A DNA stretch of 64,000 bases from Candidatus Undinarchaeales archaeon (lineage in GTDB: Archaea > SpSt-1190 > JASMDC01), in the NCBI GenBank assembly GCA_030753015.1, contig JASMDC010000001.1, forward strand, positions 96,001 to 160,000, read 5' to 3'. The notes below the pieces were generated by a model, which saw nothing but the letters and a program-made list of their open reading frames with translations, ran no database searches and was not told the origin of the DNA. The stretch's first letter is position 1, and each line of letters begins with the position of its first letter. Both the position numbers and the translations under genes were made by a program. Positions 1,526 to 8,932 of the stretch are shown in pieces.

Positions 1526-4500
1526 TCAACCGGCCGACGGTTGGCCAGTTACCGGAGTCTGTGCCGTCCCATTCTGCTGTGCCTGACCTGTACCGGCCTG
1601 AGGTGTTCGGGCAACGTTCGATTGGGAACCATATGAACCGTAGTACCGATTGGCATAGTAGGAAGAGCGCATGGCCTTAGTGATCTCCACGACAAGGTCG
1701 GACAGCAGCCCTGTCCCCATGGCGGGTTCCTCAGCCCTGGCCACGAGATTCATGTTCCACCCGGTGGTGGCCTGGTACACGGACACTTCCAGTGAGACCC
1801 GCTTCTTGGAGAACTTGCCCCGACCGGCCCATATGGCCTTCCCGCTGAACATGCTCGATGCTTCACGGACGACATAGAGTGGAGTGGTCCTCGCCTCGAT
1901 TGCAGCCCAGGCCACCCGCCAGTCCGAACCCAGGTTCACCGCGTGTGAGAACGACTTGTACTTCCCGAACACGCTATCGTACTTATCGGGTTCCACCTCA
2001 TAGCCCTCCAGAACGGGGCAGACCGAGGACACCTTCACCGGCTTGACGTTCTGGGATTTCATCCTGCCCCGGTCGTCCTTGTAGGTCACGACCCCGGAGA
2101 TCTCACCCGACACGCACCGGAGCGGGTACATCTTGAAGATGGCCGACTGGAGGTCCCCGCTCTCAAGGTCGCCGAGCATGTAGACGTTGGACTCGGGCTC
2201 GAGGTATGCCAGGGCCGCAGGTGAGGTCAGTTCGACCTTAACGTCCCGGAGCGGGAACGTGGAGCCGTTCTCCACCTTGACGAATATCTTGAGGAGGGCC
2301 CCTTCCCGGTCCATGCCCCGTTTCACTACGACCCTCTCTTCGCCCAATGTCTTTCGCTTCACCACGAGGAAGAGACCAATGAACAGCGAAGCTCCGATAA
2401 TGACGAGCTCGACATGGTCCTTGATCTCCTCGACGAACTTGATCCAGTCGATGTGGTCGATGCAGGACCTTGAGATGCTGGTGATGCAGGTCTGGAGGCA
2501 GGGGATGGTCCCCAAGCTACAGATATGGGTCGTTGATAGTTCCAGGGCCAGGGTATTACCTCGTTCCATGGCAACCGCGTCCTCGCCTCCAAGGGAACGG
2601 GAGATGTGAGTGAGGTTCTCCACAAGGACCGTGCGCTCGTCGAAGTCCATCTTGTCCAGCTTGCGATGGTTCACGAGGGTGCTGTAGAGCTCCTTGAGCA
2701 TGGTGCGTGTCTCATCTTCCGACGTAGCAATCGAACTGAGGAGGAGCTTGTCGATGTTCTCTGCGCTCACACGCCGACATACCTCGAACTTCTGGGCGAA
2801 TTCGCACCGGTCGCAGAACACCGCCTCTCCCTGGAAGCAGCCACGTGTCTTCTCGTCGTACCCATAGCATCGTATCTCCTGGGTACGGCAGCAGTCCTCG
2901 ATGCACCGTCGCTGTGGAGCATCCTCGTACCGCTCGCAGAAACCGTCGCCGCACTCGGGGCATCGGGTTATCCCCATGAGGAACCGATCCTCGCAGCACA
3001 CGCCCTTCTGCATGATGCAGGAGCCCGCGCAGAGCACACCACCCCGTTCCACCTCACATGTAACTTGTGAGCAACTTGCCATGCCCTGGGACCAGGTGTT
3101 GTTGCAGCATGCGCCCAGCTGGGGGGGGAAGCACTGACCGCCGCAGCAGATCTCACCCTCACCGCACTCGCCATCGTCGCCGCAAGAACGGCAGACGTTA
3201 TCATCGCACATGGGCAGGGTCCGTGTGCAGTTGGCCGAATTGCAGCACTGGCCTTGCTCGATCCACGAGTTGTCGCAGCATACCCCCTGGCCGAGCCAGC
3301 ACTGGTCGCCGCAGAAGGAGAACCTGCCCTTGCATACCTTGGAGCATTGATGGTTGTCGCACAGGAACGTACCACAGTCGTTGTCATTGCAGCAGTCGGA
3401 ACCCTCGATCCACGTATCGTCACAGCAGTTGCCCTCTGCGGTGTACCACTTCTCGTCGCAGCACGTGCCCTCTCCCTCCTCGCACCGTCTCCCGCAGGGG
3501 GTGAATCCTTCCTGGCACTCGATGGCCGAGCATCTGTGGCCGCTCACGAAGCAGGTCGTACCCTCGGTACAGTCCACGTCACCGCAGCATACGTCGTCAC
3601 CGGTGTACCAGGAGTCATCGCAGCACAGCCCCTGCCCACCGTAGCATTTACCTCCGCAGCACTCGCTATCGGGTCCGCACTCGATGGACGCCGTGCAGGA
3701 ACGGCAGATGGAGATGTCACCATCACAGACAGGACGGTCGTGCGGGCAGTCCTGGTCGCCGCAGCATGCGCCGCTCTTGATCCAGGTCGAGTTGCAGCAC
3801 ACCCCGTCGCCCATGAAGCAATTCCCGCCGCATCCCTTGAACCCGAAGCGGCATGTTCGCGAGCAGGTGAAGTCCTCTTGGCAGGTATAGTTACCGATGC
3901 ACTCAGCGTCCGAGCAGCAGTTCCCCCCGGCAGTGAACGCGCCAGCGCAGCAAACACCGGAGGTCGAGTTCCAGCGCTCCAGGATGTCGTCACCGCAGCA
4001 TTGCTCATCGACCCATCGAGCGTTGATGCCTCCCTTGCACTGGCAGGAGAACGGATCCCCATCACCCTCCGGATTGGCGCACGCAGAGCACCATACCTTG
4101 CTGCCCTGGGTGCACGTGGTACCGTCGCAGAAGGTGGTGCAGTTCCCGAACAGACAGGCCTCGCACTCCTCGCACAGGTCCCGCTGTACGAGCCCCTTGA
4201 GGCAGCGAGCAGTGGCACCGCACCAATTGTCCTTCTCCTTATCGTCCCCACAGCATCGCCCGTCGATCCACTCGCCCCCGTCGCATTCACAGCTGCGGGC
4301 ATCGTTGTCCCCGTCCTTGCTGCATAGGCTGCACCAGGCATCGCCCCGACAGTTGGTTGCTTCACATTCGAGGGAGTACAGGCACATCTTCGATGGGCAC
4401 TCGTCGGAGGTGCACACGCACTGGCTGTTCGTGCAGACGTCATAGGGTGATTTGGTGCAGCTATCGCTAGTGAGACAGGGCTCGTCGCTGACGCCCCACC

Positions 4501-7500
4501 GGCCGTCGAGACAGAGTCCACCGACACCGGTCCAATCCTCGCCCTTATCGTCACCACAGCACATCTCCTTCTGGTCGGCGGTCGAGATGTGCCAGCTCCC
4601 TATCTTGCATGAGCACGAGTCCTCGTTGGCGTCCCCGTCGGAGCTGGAGCATGCAGTGCACCAGTCGTCCGTATCTATGGCACAGGCATTGCCGGTGCAC
4701 ACCCGGTCGTAGGAGCAGCGGTTTGCCGTGCAGCTCTCCGATGTGCACGACGCGTACGGGCGCTCGAGACAGTCGCTCACGAGGCAGCAGTTCCCACCGT
4801 CGGCCCAGGTGTTGTTGCAGCAGACACCCGTACCAACCTGGAACTCGCCACCGCAGCAAACGCCCTCTGTGCTGTTCCAGTACTCGGTGGCGCCGTCATC
4901 ACCGCAGCATTGTCCGTCCGCCCACGTGGCCTTTGTCAGGCAGTTCGAGCAGAAGTGCTGGTCATCGTCCGGGTCGGTGACCGCGGCCCATGCACCTGCG
5001 CTGCAGTATCCTCCAGCACCGCACCACTCCTCGTCGGGATCATCCCCGCAGCACGCAGCGGTCCGATCCGCAGTCGAGAACTGCCAGGTCCCGCTCTTGC
5101 ACGTCCGGCAGTACTCTGCGTCCAAGTCGGCGTTCCCATCCTTGACGGCGATCCAGCTATCGGTCTGACAGTACCCGGTCACCCCGCACCAGGCCTCATC
5201 GGGGTCATCCCCGCAACAGCGGTTCTCCCGCCACGCGAAGGATGAGCATACCTCGCAAAAGCGTGCGTTGTTGTCGGGATCGCTCCCTGCGACCATAGTC
5301 CAGGCACCTGCATGGCAATAACCGGTGAGACCGCACCATTCCTCGTCAGGATCGTCACCGCAGCACTGGTTCTCCCTCCATTCCTCTTTCGCGCACATCA
5401 CGCACGAGTAATAGTTGGTGTCCCCGTTCGAGGAAGCGCACACGGAGCATTCCATATCGGAGCAGCTTTCGCCGGTGGAACCGAGCACGTCGATCTCGCA
5501 CTGCGAGTAATCGCATGTGGACCATCCTCCTTCCTCGCAATCCGTGAATCCGCTGAAGTGGCACTTGAGCGCCTGGGCATCGATGTAGTTATCACAAAGG
5601 GGGTGGCTTGAGCTGGATTCCTTGTACTCGCAGGGGCGGGTCCAACCACCTACGGCGCACCCGGTGAGACCGCTGAAGTAGCAATTGTTATCGACGGCCT
5701 TTGGCAGACAGGGGGGTTTTGTCGGATCCGAGCTCGCGAAGGCACAGGAGGCCCAGCCGTCCTTGGTGCAGGAGGTTGAGCCGTCGAACTGGCAGGTACC
5801 CCCGACGGCGAGGGGCGGGCATGAGGATTTGTCACCGGTCTCCTGGGCGTACTTACATGCGGACCATCCGTCGTTCGTGCACAAGGTACCGCCACCGAAG
5901 TAGCATAAGCCGGCCTCCTCATAGTGACCGCAGGCCGGTCTTTCGGTGTCTTCGTTATAGTCACATGTGGACCATCCGGAGCTTGAGCATGACGTGGTGC
6001 CCCGGTAGTTACAGGTCCGGCCCGAGGAGTAGTGGGGGCAAGCTGGCTTCGATGTGTCGATGGTGTACTTGCAGTCCGACCAACCGTCCGTTATGCATGT
6101 AGCAGTGCCACTGTGACGGCAGTTCGTGCCAGATGCCTCGGATTCGCAGGCAGGTCTGCTCGCATCCTGCTTGTTGAAGGTGCAAGCAGCCCAACCGGAT
6201 GCGGTGCATTGGGTCGAGCCATCGAACTGACATACGTCCACCTGGGCCACGGGGCCACAGTCAGGCTTGTTAGGTTCTTGGGATGTAAATGTGCAGCTAC
6301 CCCAGCCCGATTCAGTGCATGCGGGCGAGCCCCCGAACTTACAGGTGTTCCCGTCCTCATCGGGCGGGCATGCTGGTCGCTGGTGGTCGGAGCTCGTATA
6401 TGTGCACTCGGACCACCCATCGGCCCCGCACTGTGGCGTCCCGCCATAATAGCAGATGTTACCGTCCGTGTACGGAGCGCACGCGGACCGCTGGGTATCG
6501 CTCGATGTGTATGCGCAGGCGCCCCAGCCCGATCCCGTGCACGAGGGTGCACCACCAAACTTGCATGTGTTGCCCTCGGGCTTGGGCGGGCATGCTGGTC
6601 GCTGGGAGTCGGACCCGCTGAAACTGCATTCTGTCCATCCACCGCTCCCGCACGAGGAGCTGCCCTGGTAGTAACAGTAGGTGCCCTCCGTTCGAGGAGA
6701 GCAGTCAGGGGGGTTCGTGTCGGAGTAGTCGAAGGCACACGCCTCCCATCCGCCGATCCCGCATGTAGCGTGCCCGCTGTATCGGCACGTGTTGTCCAAG
6801 GGAGAGGGATTGCATGTAGGCTTGTTCGTGTCGGTCAGCGAGTAGGTACAGCTCGACCACCCGGATGTCGTGCACTGTGCGTTTCCGCCATAGCTACAGG
6901 TGTTCCCCTCGTCCTTTGGCCCGCAGTCGGGTTTGCCGGCATCCTGGTGCGCGAACTCGCAGCCAGACCATCCCGTGGTGGAGCATGAGGTGGATCCCGC
7001 ATAGCTACATGTGTTCCCGACCGCCTTGGGGTCACAGTTCGGTGGATTACGGTCCGTGTTGTCCGAGCAGGACGTCCATCCTGAGGTGCCGCACTCACTT
7101 ATACCGCCGTAATGGCAAGCGTCCCCGTCAGCGGTGGGGGTGCAGGTGGGGCGTGAAGCGTCCGATGCCGAGAATGTGCAGCTTCCCCATCCGCTCGTGG
7201 TACAATCCGTGGTGCCCTGGTACTGGCAGGTGTCACCCACGGGCTTTGGACCGCACGCTGGCTTGACGCTGTCCTGAAGGCTGAAGAGACAACCGGTCCA
7301 GCCCGATTCGCTGCAGGAGGTGCTGCCCGAGTATCGGCAGGTGTCCCCCACGGGATCGGGACCGCACAAAGGTTTGTTGGTGTCTTGGTACGTATGGGTG
7401 CACTCGCTCCACCCGCTGGAACCGCACCGCGTGTATCTCCCGTAATAACATGTGTCGCCCGAGGCGATGGGATTGCAGACCGGTTTTATTAAATCGGAGG

Positions 7501-8932
7501 AGTGGGAGCATTGGGACCAGCCAGATGATGTGCAGGAGGTGGTGCCGCCATAGTCACAGGTATCACCTATCTCTCTGGGGCTGCAGTCGGGCTTCGTCGT
7601 GTCGCTCTGGTAATTACATGACGCCCACCCGCTCTCCGTGCAGTCCGTCTCCCCCGAATAGCGGCAGGTATCACCGTCCGGTTGAGGTCCGCAATCGGGC
7701 TTGTTGGTATCCTGGTACGCGAAGGAACACGCCTCCCAACCTGTTGACATGCAGGACGTGCTCCCGCCATACTTGCAGAGACGGTCACTGGCCGCAGCCG
7801 AGCAATCGGGCTTCGATCCCATCTGATAGTTGCAGTCCGACCATCCTCCAGCCTGGCACTGGGGATTGGCCGTGTGGTAGCAGGAGTTCCCATCGGGGTA
7901 ATTGTCGCATGTGGGCCGGGTCTCGCTCTCGAAAGAGCAGCTGGACCATCCCGACGCCGTGCAGTCGCTGGATCCCGAGTGCTTGCAGATGCTACCATCT
8001 ATATAGGATCCACAGGAAGGCTTGGTCCCGGTCTGGTAGCTGCACTCCCATCCTGAGGCAGTGCACTGTGCCGTGCCTGAATGGTAGCATGTGTTCCCGT
8101 TCGCGTAATTTCCGCAAGCGGGCTTTGTCTCGGTCTGGTAGCTGCACTCCCATCCTGAGGCGGTGCACTGCGCCGTGCCCGAATGGTAACATGTGTTCCC
8201 GTTCGCGTAGTTACCACATGCGGGCTTTGTCTCGGTCTGGTAGCTGCATTCCCAACCTGTCGCCTTGCACAGTGATGTTCCGGAGTGATAGCATGTGTTC
8301 CCGTTCGCGTAATTTCCGCAGGCGGGCTTTGTCTCGGTCTGGAACGCACAGGTCGACCATCCCGTCGCCGAGCACTGGGTCGATCCCGAGTGGTAGCATG
8401 TGTTCCCGTTGGCATAGTTCGTGCATGCGGGCTTGCTGTCGCTCTGGAACTCACATGTCGACCATCCCGATGCGGTGCATCCGGTCGTACCGGAATGATA
8501 GCATGTGTTCCCGTCCGGGTACTGGGTACATGCCGGTTTCGAGGTGCTCTGATAGGAACATTCCCAACCGCCGGCGGTACACTGCGCGCTGCCCGAGTAA
8601 TAGCAGATGTTCCCGTCCGCGTACAAGCCGCACGCGGGCTGGTTCGCATCCTGATACGAGTAGGAGCAGGTCGACCAGCCGGTGGACGTGCACGATGTGC
8701 TCCCACCGTACTTACAGGTAGTGCCACTGATGGTCTGAGAGCATGAGGGCTTGGAATTCCGGTAGCTGAAGCAGCATTTCGGATATTGATAGTACCCGCT
8801 GTAATAGCAGTAACTGCCACTTGTCTTGGGCAGGCAGCTCGTGGTAGATGTGCTGAAGCACCAGGCACTCCAGCCGAGGCTCATGACAAGGACCATTACC
8901 AGCAACAGGGTGCGTCGGTGGGCACCTATCAT
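1526..8932 (-). CDS. Giant (2468 aa) cysteine-rich single-pass surface protein with a cytoplasmic Ig+platform-like domain
   Basis: Signal peptide MIGAHRRTLLLVMVLVMSLGWSA; 30 counted 4-Cys GW repeats; 7 CCGDD motifs; CC-x-x-x-W repeats; CGDGFC motif; TM LVIIGASLFIGLFLVV followed by KRK; about 275-aa cytoplasmic domain. Confidence 0.9.
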   Translation of the reverse strand: MIGAHRRTLLLVMVLVMSLGWSAWCFSTSTTSCLPKTSGSYCYYSGYYQYPKCCFSYRNSKPSCSQTISGTTCKYGGSTSCTSTGWSTCSYSYQDANQPACGLYADGNICYYSGSAQCTAGGWECSYQSTSKPACTQYPDGNTCYHSGTTGCTASGWSTCEFQSDSKPACTNYANGNTCYHSGSTQCSATGWSTCAFQTETKPACGNYANGNTCYHSGTSLCKATGWECSYQTETKPACGNYANGNTCYHSGTAQCTASGWECSYQTETKPACGNYANGNTCYHSGTAQCTASGWECSYQTGTKPSCGSYIDGSICKHSGSSDCTASGWSSCSFESETRPTCDNYPDGNSCYHTANPQCQAGGWSDCNYQMGSKPDCSAAASDRLCKYGGSTSCMSTGWEACSFAYQDTNKPDCGPQPDGDTCRYSGETDCTESGWASCNYQSDTTKPDCSPREIGDTCDYGGTTSCTSSGWSQCSHSSDLIKPVCNPIASGDTCYYGRYTRCGSSGWSECTHTYQDTNKPLCGPDPVGDTCRYSGSTSCSESGWTGCLFSLQDSVKPACGPKPVGDTCQYQGTTDCTTSGWGSCTFSASDASRPTCTPTADGDACHYGGISECGTSGWTSCSDNTDRNPPNCDPKAVGNTCSYAGSTSCSTTGWSGCEFAHQDAGKPDCGPKDEGNTCSYGGNAQCTTSGWSSCTYSLTDTNKPTCNPSPLDNTCRYSGHATCGIGGWEACAFDYSDTNPPDCSPRTEGTYCYYQGSSSCGSGGWTECSFSGSDSQRPACPPKPEGNTCKFGGAPSCTGSGWGACAYTSSDTQRSACAPYTDGNICYYGGTPQCGADGWSECTYTSSDHQRPACPPDEDGNTCKFGGSPACTESGWGSCTFTSQEPNKPDCGPVAQVDVCQFDGSTQCTASGWAACTFNKQDASRPACESEASGTNCRHSGTATCITDGWSDCKYTIDTSKPACPHYSSGRTCNYRGTTSCSSSGWSTCDYNEDTERPACGHYEEAGLCYFGGGTLCTNDGWSACKYAQETGDKSSCPPLAVGGTCQFDGSTSCTKDGWASCAFASSDPTKPPCLPKAVDNNCYFSGLTGCAVGGWTRPCEYKESSSSHPLCDNYIDAQALKCHFSGFTDCEEGGWSTCDYSQCEIDVLGSTGESCSDMECSVCASSNGDTNYYSCVMCAKEEWRENQCCGDDPDEEWCGLTGYCHAGAWTMVAGSDPDNNARFCEVCSSFAWRENRCCGDDPDEAWCGVTGYCQTDSWIAVKDGNADLDAEYCRTCKSGTWQFSTADRTAACCGDDPDEEWCGAGGYCSAGAWAAVTDPDDDQHFCSNCLTKATWADGQCCGDDGATEYWNSTEGVCCGGEFQVGTGVCCNNTWADGGNCCLVSDCLERPYASCTSESCTANRCSYDRVCTGNACAIDTDDWCTACSSSDGDANEDSCSCKIGSWHISTADQKEMCCGDDKGEDWTGVGGLCLDGRWGVSDEPCLTSDSCTKSPYDVCTNSQCVCTSDECPSKMCLYSLECEATNCRGDAWCSLCSKDGDNDARSCECDGGEWIDGRCCGDDKEKDNWCGATARCLKGLVQRDLCEECEACLFGNCTTFCDGTTCTQGSKVWCSACANPEGDGDPFSCQCKGGINARWVDEQCCGDDILERWNSTSGVCCAGAFTAGGNCCSDAECIGNYTCQEDFTCSRTCRFGFKGCGGNCFMGDGVCCNSTWIKSGACCGDQDCPHDRPVCDGDISICRSCTASIECGPDSECCGGKCYGGQGLCCDDSWYTGDDVCCGDVDCTEGTTCFVSGHRCSAIECQEGFTPCGRRCEEGEGTCCDEKWYTAEGNCCDDTWIEGSDCCNDNDCGTFLCDNHQCSKVCKGRFSFCGDQCWLGQGVCCDNSWIEQGQCCNSANCTRTLPMCDDNVCRSCGDDGECGEGEICCGGQCFPPQLGACCNNTWSQGMASCSQVTCEVERGGVLCAGSCIMQKGVCCEDRFLMGITRCPECGDGFCERYEDAPQRRCIEDCCRTQEIRCYGYDEKTRGCFQGEAVFCDRCEFAQKFEVCRRVSAENIDKLLLSSIATSEDETRTMLKELYSTLVNHRKLDKMDFDERTVLVENLTHISRSLGGEDAVAMERGNTLALELSTTHICSLGTIPCLQTCITSISRSCIDHIDWIKFVEEIKDHVELVIIGASLFIGLFLVVKRKTLGEERVVVKRGMDREGALLKIFVKVENGSTFPLRDVKVELTSPAALAYLEPESNVYMLGDLESGDLQSAIFKMYPLRCVSGEISGVVTYKDDRGRMKSQNVKPVKVSSVCPVLEGYEVEPDKYDSVFGKYKSFSHAVNLGSDWRVAWAAIEARTTPLYVVREASSMFSGKAIWAGRGKFSKKRVSLEVSVYQATTGWNMNLVARAEEPAMGTGLLSDLVVEITKAMRSSYYANRYYGSYGSQSNVARTPQAGTGQAQQNGTAQTPVTGQPSAG
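8030..8440. repeat. Intragenic 102-bp tandem repeat (34-aa unit), 3 highly similar copies plus 1 more diverged copy
   Basis: Units starting ggtctgg at 8030, 8132, 8234 and 8336 (period 102) encode KPACGNYANGNTCYHSGTAQCTASGWECSYQTET and variants. Confidence 0.92.

Follow-up and report, generated by a model that had tools for sequence, protein, structure and literature searches.

What does a domain resembling the ear of a vesicle coat do at the inner end of a giant archaeal surface protein? The question is raised by a stretch of 64,000 nucleotides from Candidatus Undinarchaeales archaeon SpSt-1190 (contig JASMDC010000001.1, positions 96,001 to 160,000; hereafter the window), in which an open reading frame (ORF) of 2468 amino acids (aa) on the minus strand (1526-8932) carries an appendage-like inner tail (residues 2192-2425). 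The original prediction, made from the letters of the window, described a receptor-like protein that couples a huge ectodomain to a eukaryote-like trafficking module consisting of a cytoplasmic beta-sandwich and platform. Our computational analysis supports the fold and its cytoplasmic position. The domain family is not new; new is its multi-copy expansion on surface proteins in the lineage of the source genome (G000), which lacks a detectable ESCRT system, the machinery that cuts membranes.

Fold and topology of the inner tail

The domain proper occupies 1658-2359 of the window (234 aa). It comprises an immunoglobulin (Ig)-like beta-sandwich (residues 2192-2305; window 2018-2359), which contains the juxtamembrane motif KRKTLGEE and a conserved Cys pair, and a TBP-like alpha/beta platform (residues 2306-2425; window 1658-2017). 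The AlphaFold2 model of residues 2192-2425, built from an 87-row alignment, reached a mean predicted local distance difference test score (pLDDT) of 95.4 and a predicted template modelling score (pTM) of 0.77, with eight strands at domain positions 10-113 and the alpha/beta subdomain at 117-233. The top Foldseek match was the COPI chain 9qpq_H (E 4e-11), followed by the appendages of gamma-COP, alpha-adaptin and beta2-adaptin, and re-alignment to residues 723-953 of 9qpq_H covered 216 residues with Z 16.0 and 13% identity. Alignments to the alpha, beta2 and COP ears extended over the full length (201-216 residues; Z about 13 for the alpha ears), and the platform could be superimposed on the AP-4 beta appendage 2mj7 with Z 13.1 and a root mean square deviation (rmsd) of 2.7 Å over 116 residues. 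Four appendage structures ranked highest in a wide structural search. In the Atlas search an archaeal cluster without a name came first (0.94), and all named clusters at ranks 2-12 (0.84-0.91) were adaptin/COP appendages. The tail domain matches 243 50%-clusters at E<=0.001, which, with its low dN/dS between orthologues, sets it far apart from a chance pattern, and one homologue matches Alpha_adaptinC2 below the cut-off (E 4e-5). These comparisons of a predicted model support an adaptin/COP-type appendage fold with sandwich and platform, as the original prediction had proposed. The generic CARDB or S-layer Ig domains that it had named as competing top matches were not seen at the top; such domains are extracellular and without a platform, and the S-layer-type Ig proteins of G000 matched the sandwich only, weakly (domain E >= 7e-5). 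The claimed likeness to the BBSome holds in a weaker form. BBS9 aligns with both subdomains (6xt9_I; 195 residues, Z 10.2) and BBS1 with the sandwich only (Z 11.5), but the BBSome GAE and platform chains (6vbu_1, 6xt9_I and BBS7 6vbu_7; Z 10.2-11.5) score below the COP and AP ears (13-16) and close to a generic Ig domain (9fyo, Z 11.8). Likewise, the match to TRAP-beta (Z 12.4, rmsd 2.5) covers the sandwich only.

The COPI beta- and gamma-COP appendages (9qpq_H, 1r4x, 1pzd) are the best overall match, with both subdomains aligned in order, but differ by an rmsd of 6.7-8.6 Å. The AP-2 alpha and beta2 and the AP-4 beta appendages (1w80, 3hs8, 1e42, 2mj7) share sandwich and platform (Z 12.3-13.2) but only 6-10% identity. 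In eukaryotes the ear is attached to a soluble coat subunit by way of a linker and a trunk, and in the large subunits of AP and COPI this trunk is an alpha-solenoid; in contrast, the ear of G000 forms the inner tail of a membrane protein and follows a transmembrane helix and a Cys-rich ectodomain. The layout is similar to that of p24/GOLD cargo receptors, which are single-pass proteins with an outer binding domain and a cytoplasmic sorting part. The tails of p24 proteins are short coat-binding peptides, whereas in the G000 protein a folded coat-type domain is itself the tail.

The topology could be assigned from several lines of computation. Hydropathy analysis of the ORF revealed strong segments only at residues 8-26 (Kyte-Doolittle hydropathy, KD, 2.0) and 2173-2191 (KD 2.35). 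The latter is the single transmembrane helix (window 2360-2416), and it is followed by KRK, in agreement with the positive-inside rule. The density of Cys is 8-20 per 100 residues in all blocks up to residue 2100 and 0-1 past residue 2200. In the clade of the window protein the transmembrane helix ends at most 10 residues before the domain in 38 of 40 members, and the net charge is higher behind the helix in 35 of 38. Two proteins of another archaeal genome (G070) show the reverse order: they start with the appendage domain, followed by a transmembrane helix and either a ProX/OpuAC binding domain or a GOLD domain, which places the appendage on the inner side. The homologues without a transmembrane helix bear FHA, TPR, LRR or WD40 domains. 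Taken together, the computations support a cytoplasmic tail domain on a type I membrane protein, in line with the original prediction. The motifs quoted there are all present (window 1529-2410), and its span up to 2410 includes the domain but reaches too far, since the domain ends at 2359 and position 2410 is located inside the transmembrane helix. The ProX fusion of G070 (L092:10765-12651, 628 aa) joins a substrate-binding domain via the helix to the N-terminal appendage. According to PMC10936438, an appendage-TM-GOLD fusion occurs in Meth_adaptin loci, and ProX is a separate gene in loci of this type.

Archaeal homologues, expansion and search for ESCRT genes

Makarova et al. (2024, PMC10936438) assign archaeal Ig + TBP appendage regions of Meth_adaptin ESCRT loci to arCOG15284, find them also in multidomain proteins of Asgard archaea (Lokiarchaeia/Thorarchaeia) and read them as ESCRT accessories; AP domains in Asgard archaea are also reported by Eme et al. 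(2023, PMC10307638). Using phmmer, the window domain (P0003) matched appendage proteins of locus L058, whose gene order is that of the published Meth_adaptin locus, at 41.5 and 39.6 bits and Meth_adaptin-locus appendages at up to 45 bits. The profile A3 detected three genes in an ESCRT-type locus of G070 (E 2e-30 to 1e-14). Judged by these protein sequences, the tail domain and the appendages encoded in Meth_adaptin-type loci are homologues, and the domain belongs to a family already known. It shares with arCOG15284 the Ig domain, the TBP-like platform and the occurrence of membrane-anchored forms with variable ectodomains. It differs by its position directly behind the transmembrane helix, the lack of a C-terminal zinc ribbon, ectodomains of up to about 2170 aa and a DPANN-related host.

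A metagenome scan with five distant homologues (A6) yielded 35 loci, 20 of them at least 9 kb long. Vps4- and/or ESCRT-III-like genes are present in 14 of these 20 loci around Methanosarcinales-type homologues. This count includes two loci from a single contig and several near-duplicates, and the same loci had served to build the ESCRT profiles. Among 45 distinct full domains in the loci, 26 follow a transmembrane helix (type I), seven precede one, six have none and six are unclear. The ectodomains sampled there contain PEGA, LamG, PQQ and PKD domains. The receptor-like layout is frequent in the family and therefore not peculiar to G000. Two further observations concern these loci. At L031/L060 and L032 two different ESCRT-III-like and two Vps4-like genes lie on one contig and adjoin appendage genes. 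As a lead only, the nearest named Atlas clusters of a Meth-type ESCRT-III (L046:6970-7539, minus strand) are about 80% bacterial (Chloroflexota, Planctomycetota; 0.95-0.96); according to the abstract of PMC10936438, ESCRT homologues are not identifiable in bacteria.

The source genome (3.85 Mb, 98.9% complete, 5.0% contamination) contains 11 copies of the domain, 10 behind a transmembrane helix and one (C60) without a clear helix, and a second genome of the same genus (G006) contains 10; both genomes are about 99% complete. The paralogue C35 has the sandwich only, in both species. The phylum was further represented by 15 smaller genomes (0.6-1.2 Mb), of which 13 lack the domain and two show weak sandwich-only matches (E 4e-5 and 4e-4), which we rejected as probable generic Ig domains. 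Of 401 archaeal genomes sampled, 19 match the domain at E<=1e-8. In a midpoint-rooted tree of 178 domains, in which P0029 stands in for its close relative C62, all ten full-length copies of G000 fall into one clade of 40 (FastTree 0.987, SH-aLRT 99.2), which points to a single expansion. The expanded domain starts directly behind the transmembrane helix with the motif KRKT(L/I)GEE. The G000 paralogues differ in their ectodomains, most of which are unrelated: they comprise a PQQ propeller, BNR repeats, a weak match to an epimerase-type barrel or Cys-rich modules, or are almost absent, and some carriers are as small as 330-480 aa. C62 has a transmembrane helix and domain of the C31 type on an ectodomain with merely 27% identity. 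A literature search, with subscription journals mostly outside its coverage, found no report of this expansion, and Table S1 of PMC10936438, covered at 23 of its 34 arCOG15284 places, gave no true match to Undinarchaeota or SpSt-1190. PMC10936187 describes DPANN genomes of about 4 Mb whose organisms may be free-living. The paralogue without a clear helix (C60:7429-11138) lies, read by eye, directly downstream of genes resembling those of a PIN/KH ATPase and a DisA/DacZ-type protein.

Genes for an ESCRT system were sought in the same genomes. The Vps4 query gave three matches each in G000 and G006, only to Cdc48-like and PAN-like ATPases and not to Vps4; in G000 two are located in a tandem-AAA protein of 776 aa and one in a protein of 411 aa, read as Cdc48 and PAN. 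In the positive control G070 the query reached E 9e-162. A MIT domain over the cut-off was not found in G000, nor was an ESCRT-III match with Snf7, PspA or Meth-type profiles, which miss other ESCRT-III clades. This second negative is weaker than that for Vps4, because among the 19 genomes with appendages the ESCRT-III profile A7 detects only 4; with the Snf7 Pfam family, no control genome exceeded the cut-off. Vps4_C (PF09336) was rejected as an ESCRT test since it also matches Cdc48- and PAN-sized ORFs. The longin domain of AP sigma/mu (PF01217) was not found in G000, and it was not matched in any control genome either. SPFH, Vps4, ESCRT-III and winged-helix (wH) genes were not seen within 6 kb of the 11 appendage genes, a reading made by eye from crude ORF calls and limited by contig ends at C52, C63 and C38. 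In contrast to Meth_adaptin loci, the G000 genes are scattered and their copies form one clade. G000 fails both the Vps4 and the gene-cluster test for a Meth_adaptin ESCRT system, and the coupling to a eukaryote-like trafficking module that had been predicted was not supported in this organism, as searches of G000 found neither Vps4 nor ESCRT-III nor an AP sigma/mu longin. Two Vps4-like ATPases are present in the genome G033, whose homologue is closer, and the lack of ESCRT therefore seems particular to the G000 lineage.

Sequence constraint, candidate partners and rival explanations

The constraint on the domain was analyzed by comparison of orthologues from G000 and G006. In the window protein the sandwich is 99.1% identical with a ratio of nonsynonymous to synonymous substitution rates (dN/dS) of 0.013, the platform 81.7% identical (dN/dS 0.20) and the region of four-Cys repeats in the ectodomain 86.4% identical (dN/dS 0.11); the transmembrane helix is 100% and the membrane-proximal stalk 93.7% identical. 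In the four core pairs (C29, C31, C40:156302 and C52) identities are 97.3-99.1% for the sandwich (dN/dS 0.013-0.038), 81.0-94.1% for the platform and 70.2-89.3% for the ectodomain. The sandwich exceeds the platform in six of the eight pairs that have both. C63 was dropped (best match below 60% identity), C62 lacks an orthologue and was paired with a non-orthologue, and pooled totals including C62 were not used. The conserved sandwich residues include R14, K24, K28, Q71, R81 and K101; E19, D69 and R97 of the domain are conserved as well. Both Cys at domain positions 82 and 114 are present in 137 of 154 sequences, and seven sequences have lost both (Fisher p 1e-6, uncorrected for kinship). In the model they sit at the hinge, at the two ends of the last strand pair, and are on this basis presumed to be neighbours. 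A metal site or a redox switch is the likeliest role of the pair; a structural disulfide seems less likely in a cytoplasmic domain. The prediction of a homodimer with two Zn scored 0.02 against a mark of 0.42 and gives no evidence either way.

With the fold, topology, homology, 11-copy expansion, exchange of ectodomains, sandwich constraint and lack of detectable ESCRT as computed results, we infer a common partner and a clustering function. We give an even chance to the reading that the cytoplasmic arCOG15284-type appendage is a constant handle by which diverse surface proteins dock on a single partner common to them all and are thereby clustered. The handle would have been grafted on interchangeable ectodomains (Cys-repeat stalks, PQQ/WD40 propellers, lectin-like and BNR domains), its sandwich would bind one cytoplasmic or membrane partner, and this partner would gather and position the surface proteins in membrane patches. 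A single partner is suggested by the constant tail with a nearly frozen sandwich on many ectodomains; without Vps4 and ESCRT-III, the result would be clustering and anchoring rather than ESCRT-driven budding.

As a first guess the partner could be an SPFH+SHOCT protein of G000 (C84:34099-35157, equivalent to L097:8097-9155, minus strand), since the appendage genes of Meth_adaptin-type loci have SPFH genes at their sides. It consists of a Band_7/Band_7_1 SPFH domain, a Gln-rich linker and a C-terminal SHOCT domain, matches the Meth-type SPFH profile weakly (E 6e-7) and is 97% identical between G000 and G006, with matches of only 21-27% in the 15 small-genome relatives. Counts of SPFH genes from one profile search were discarded, as the profile includes a zinc ribbon common to appendage proteins. 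The ligands could also be Tyr-rich inner tails. In a census on a mechanical six-frame ORF set, 23 of 103 candidate single-pass proteins of G000 have inner tails with at least four Tyr in 20 residues. For ectodomain pieces matched in length the mean was 3.5, with a maximum of 8 over 200 draws, and among 304 C-termini of long ORFs that lack a transmembrane helix the number was 6. These tails are of low complexity and rich in Tyr, Gln and Gly; one belongs to the upstream neighbour gene in the window, which ends at 609 (plus strand). The window protein, C38 and C40:156302 end in Tyr-containing tails past the domain, and the homologue of G033 has a Tyr/Gln/Pro linker from the transmembrane helix to the domain.

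Several observations weigh against the reading of a constant handle on a shared partner. The 11 genes are scattered, and their neighbourhoods contain no conserved or common partner; the nearest SPFH gene is about 13.5 kb away from one appendage copy and does not adjoin it. That the SPFH+SHOCT protein is confined to the two large genomes counts for little, because both are three times larger than their relatives. In the C60 and C38 pairs the sandwich is not more conserved than the platform. Moreover, the sandwich has lower dS values too (0.28-0.43 in the core pairs), and recombination or codon constraint may therefore contribute. As to the fold, the rmsd of the whole domain is 6.5-9.3 Å (6.7-9 Å to eukaryotic ears), from which a different hinge angle between the subdomains follows, and sequence searches of the PDB with the domain and the profiles A1 and A2 returned no adaptin but only zinc-ribbon noise, so that the link to eukaryotic ears is structural only.

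The Tyr-rich tails would take a leading part if the anchored ears formed a coat of their own. In eukaryotes the ears recognize short aromatic motifs of disordered accessory proteins, at sites on sandwich and platform. In an ESCRT-independent proto-coat the ears would bind the disordered Tyr-rich tails of one another and of further surface proteins in a multivalent submembrane network; about ten receptor ears would meet more than 20 such tails, perhaps around an SPFH scaffold, and divide the cell surface into patches. The excess of tails over the controls, the Tyr tails past three of the domains and the linker in G033 agree with such a network. However, the tails are alike in composition without an evident fixed motif and may self-associate or bind otherwise, and their number depends on mechanically called ORFs; we hold this proto-coat to be unlikely. 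Many ectodomains on one constant tail would also suit a signalling receptor, in which an ectodomain ligand alters the clustering or the metal or redox state of the hinge Cys and the signal is relayed to an effector of the KaiC, MglA or roadblock type. The covariation of Cys82 and Cys114 is consistent with this idea, and a fusion of a KaiC/RecA-like and an MglA-like GTPase domain (C33:12261-14536; KaiC label read from sequence) is flanked by a roadblock and a KaiC-like gene. A signalling role is nevertheless unlikely: the tail has no catalytic or known signalling domain, the GTPase module is unlinked to any appendage gene and the homologues elsewhere are located in ESCRT loci. Two more roadblock genes of G000 are found on C27 and C28.

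Those ESCRT loci would also be expected if the domain were an ordinary Meth_adaptin-like cargo receptor for ESCRT budding, whose ESCRT genes are too divergent to be recognized or absent from the assemblies. The frequent Vps4- and ESCRT-III-like genes in the longer metagenome loci, the two Vps4-like ATPases of G033 the insensitivity of A7 to other clades and the control genomes missed by Snf7 argue in its favour. The Vps4 query, which scored strongly in its positive control, gave only Cdc48/PAN-type matches in two nearly complete genomes, and neither MIT nor PspA exceeded the cut-off, which makes a hidden ESCRT system very unlikely. A role as a tag for biogenesis or turnover, in which the tail aids Sec translocation of disulfide-rich giants or marks them for extraction by Cdc48 and the proteasome, could draw on the similarity of the sandwich to TRAP-beta and on the Cdc48-like and PAN-like ATPases of G000. 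But TRAP-beta has no platform and its Ig domain is luminal, most giant Cys-rich surface proteins of G000 lack the domain, and some of its carriers are small, so that we consider this role very unlikely.

Other parts of the giant ORF and biological meaning

All remaining parts of the window protein are likewise encoded on the minus strand. A signal-peptide-like segment (residues 1-26; 8855-8932) is followed by an extracellular stalk of 30 tandem repeats of 34-37 aa, by pattern count, with four Cys each (residues 64-1140; 5513-8743). A model of five repeats consists of small beta modules (pLDDT 91.6, pTM 0.56), for which Foldseek found no match in the PDB at E<=0.001, and no other ORF of G000 contains two or more copies of the pattern. 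Cys-rich modules with seven CCGDD motifs (residues 1141-2030; 2843-5512) show weak similarity to the ectodomain of C38, and CCG[DN]D modules are common to this and four other giant ORFs of G000. A membrane-proximal stalk poorer in Cys and probably helical by its sequence (residues 2031-2172; 2417-2842) leads to the transmembrane helix. Behind the platform the protein ends with a low-complexity tail rich in Tyr, Gln and Gly (residues 2426-2468; 1526-1657 with the stop codon), which is similar to the inner tails of the 23 other single-pass proteins. Pfam searches with the domain and with the entire protein detected no family. In RNA libraries of two studies, contigs span short parts of the gene, among them the domain, at a depth of 2-6; they were not used, since contigs cannot show transcription. 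G000 has at least 29 open frames longer than 2000 aa, among them one of 8360 aa with a C-terminal transmembrane helix (C40:16588-41667, minus strand). Five ORFs with a tubulin/FtsZ-type signature in plausible context are located on C23, C25, C49, C65 and C117.

The expansion of the appendage under strong purifying selection in the absence of detectable Vps4 and ESCRT-III suggests that it has a job of its own. It offers a convenient test case: the domain is small and soluble, one subdomain is sharply constrained and candidate ligands can be named, the Tyr-rich tails and the SPFH+SHOCT protein. The identity of the partner would show which role coat ears had before there were eukaryotic coats. 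The 26 type I tails among 45 domains in Methanosarcinales-type loci suggest that an "ear on the cargo", as opposed to an "ear on the coat", is the common archaeal form. If the proto-coat were true, the ear would have begun as a sorting device for aromatic motifs on the cargo and would later have moved onto the soluble coats of eukaryotes.

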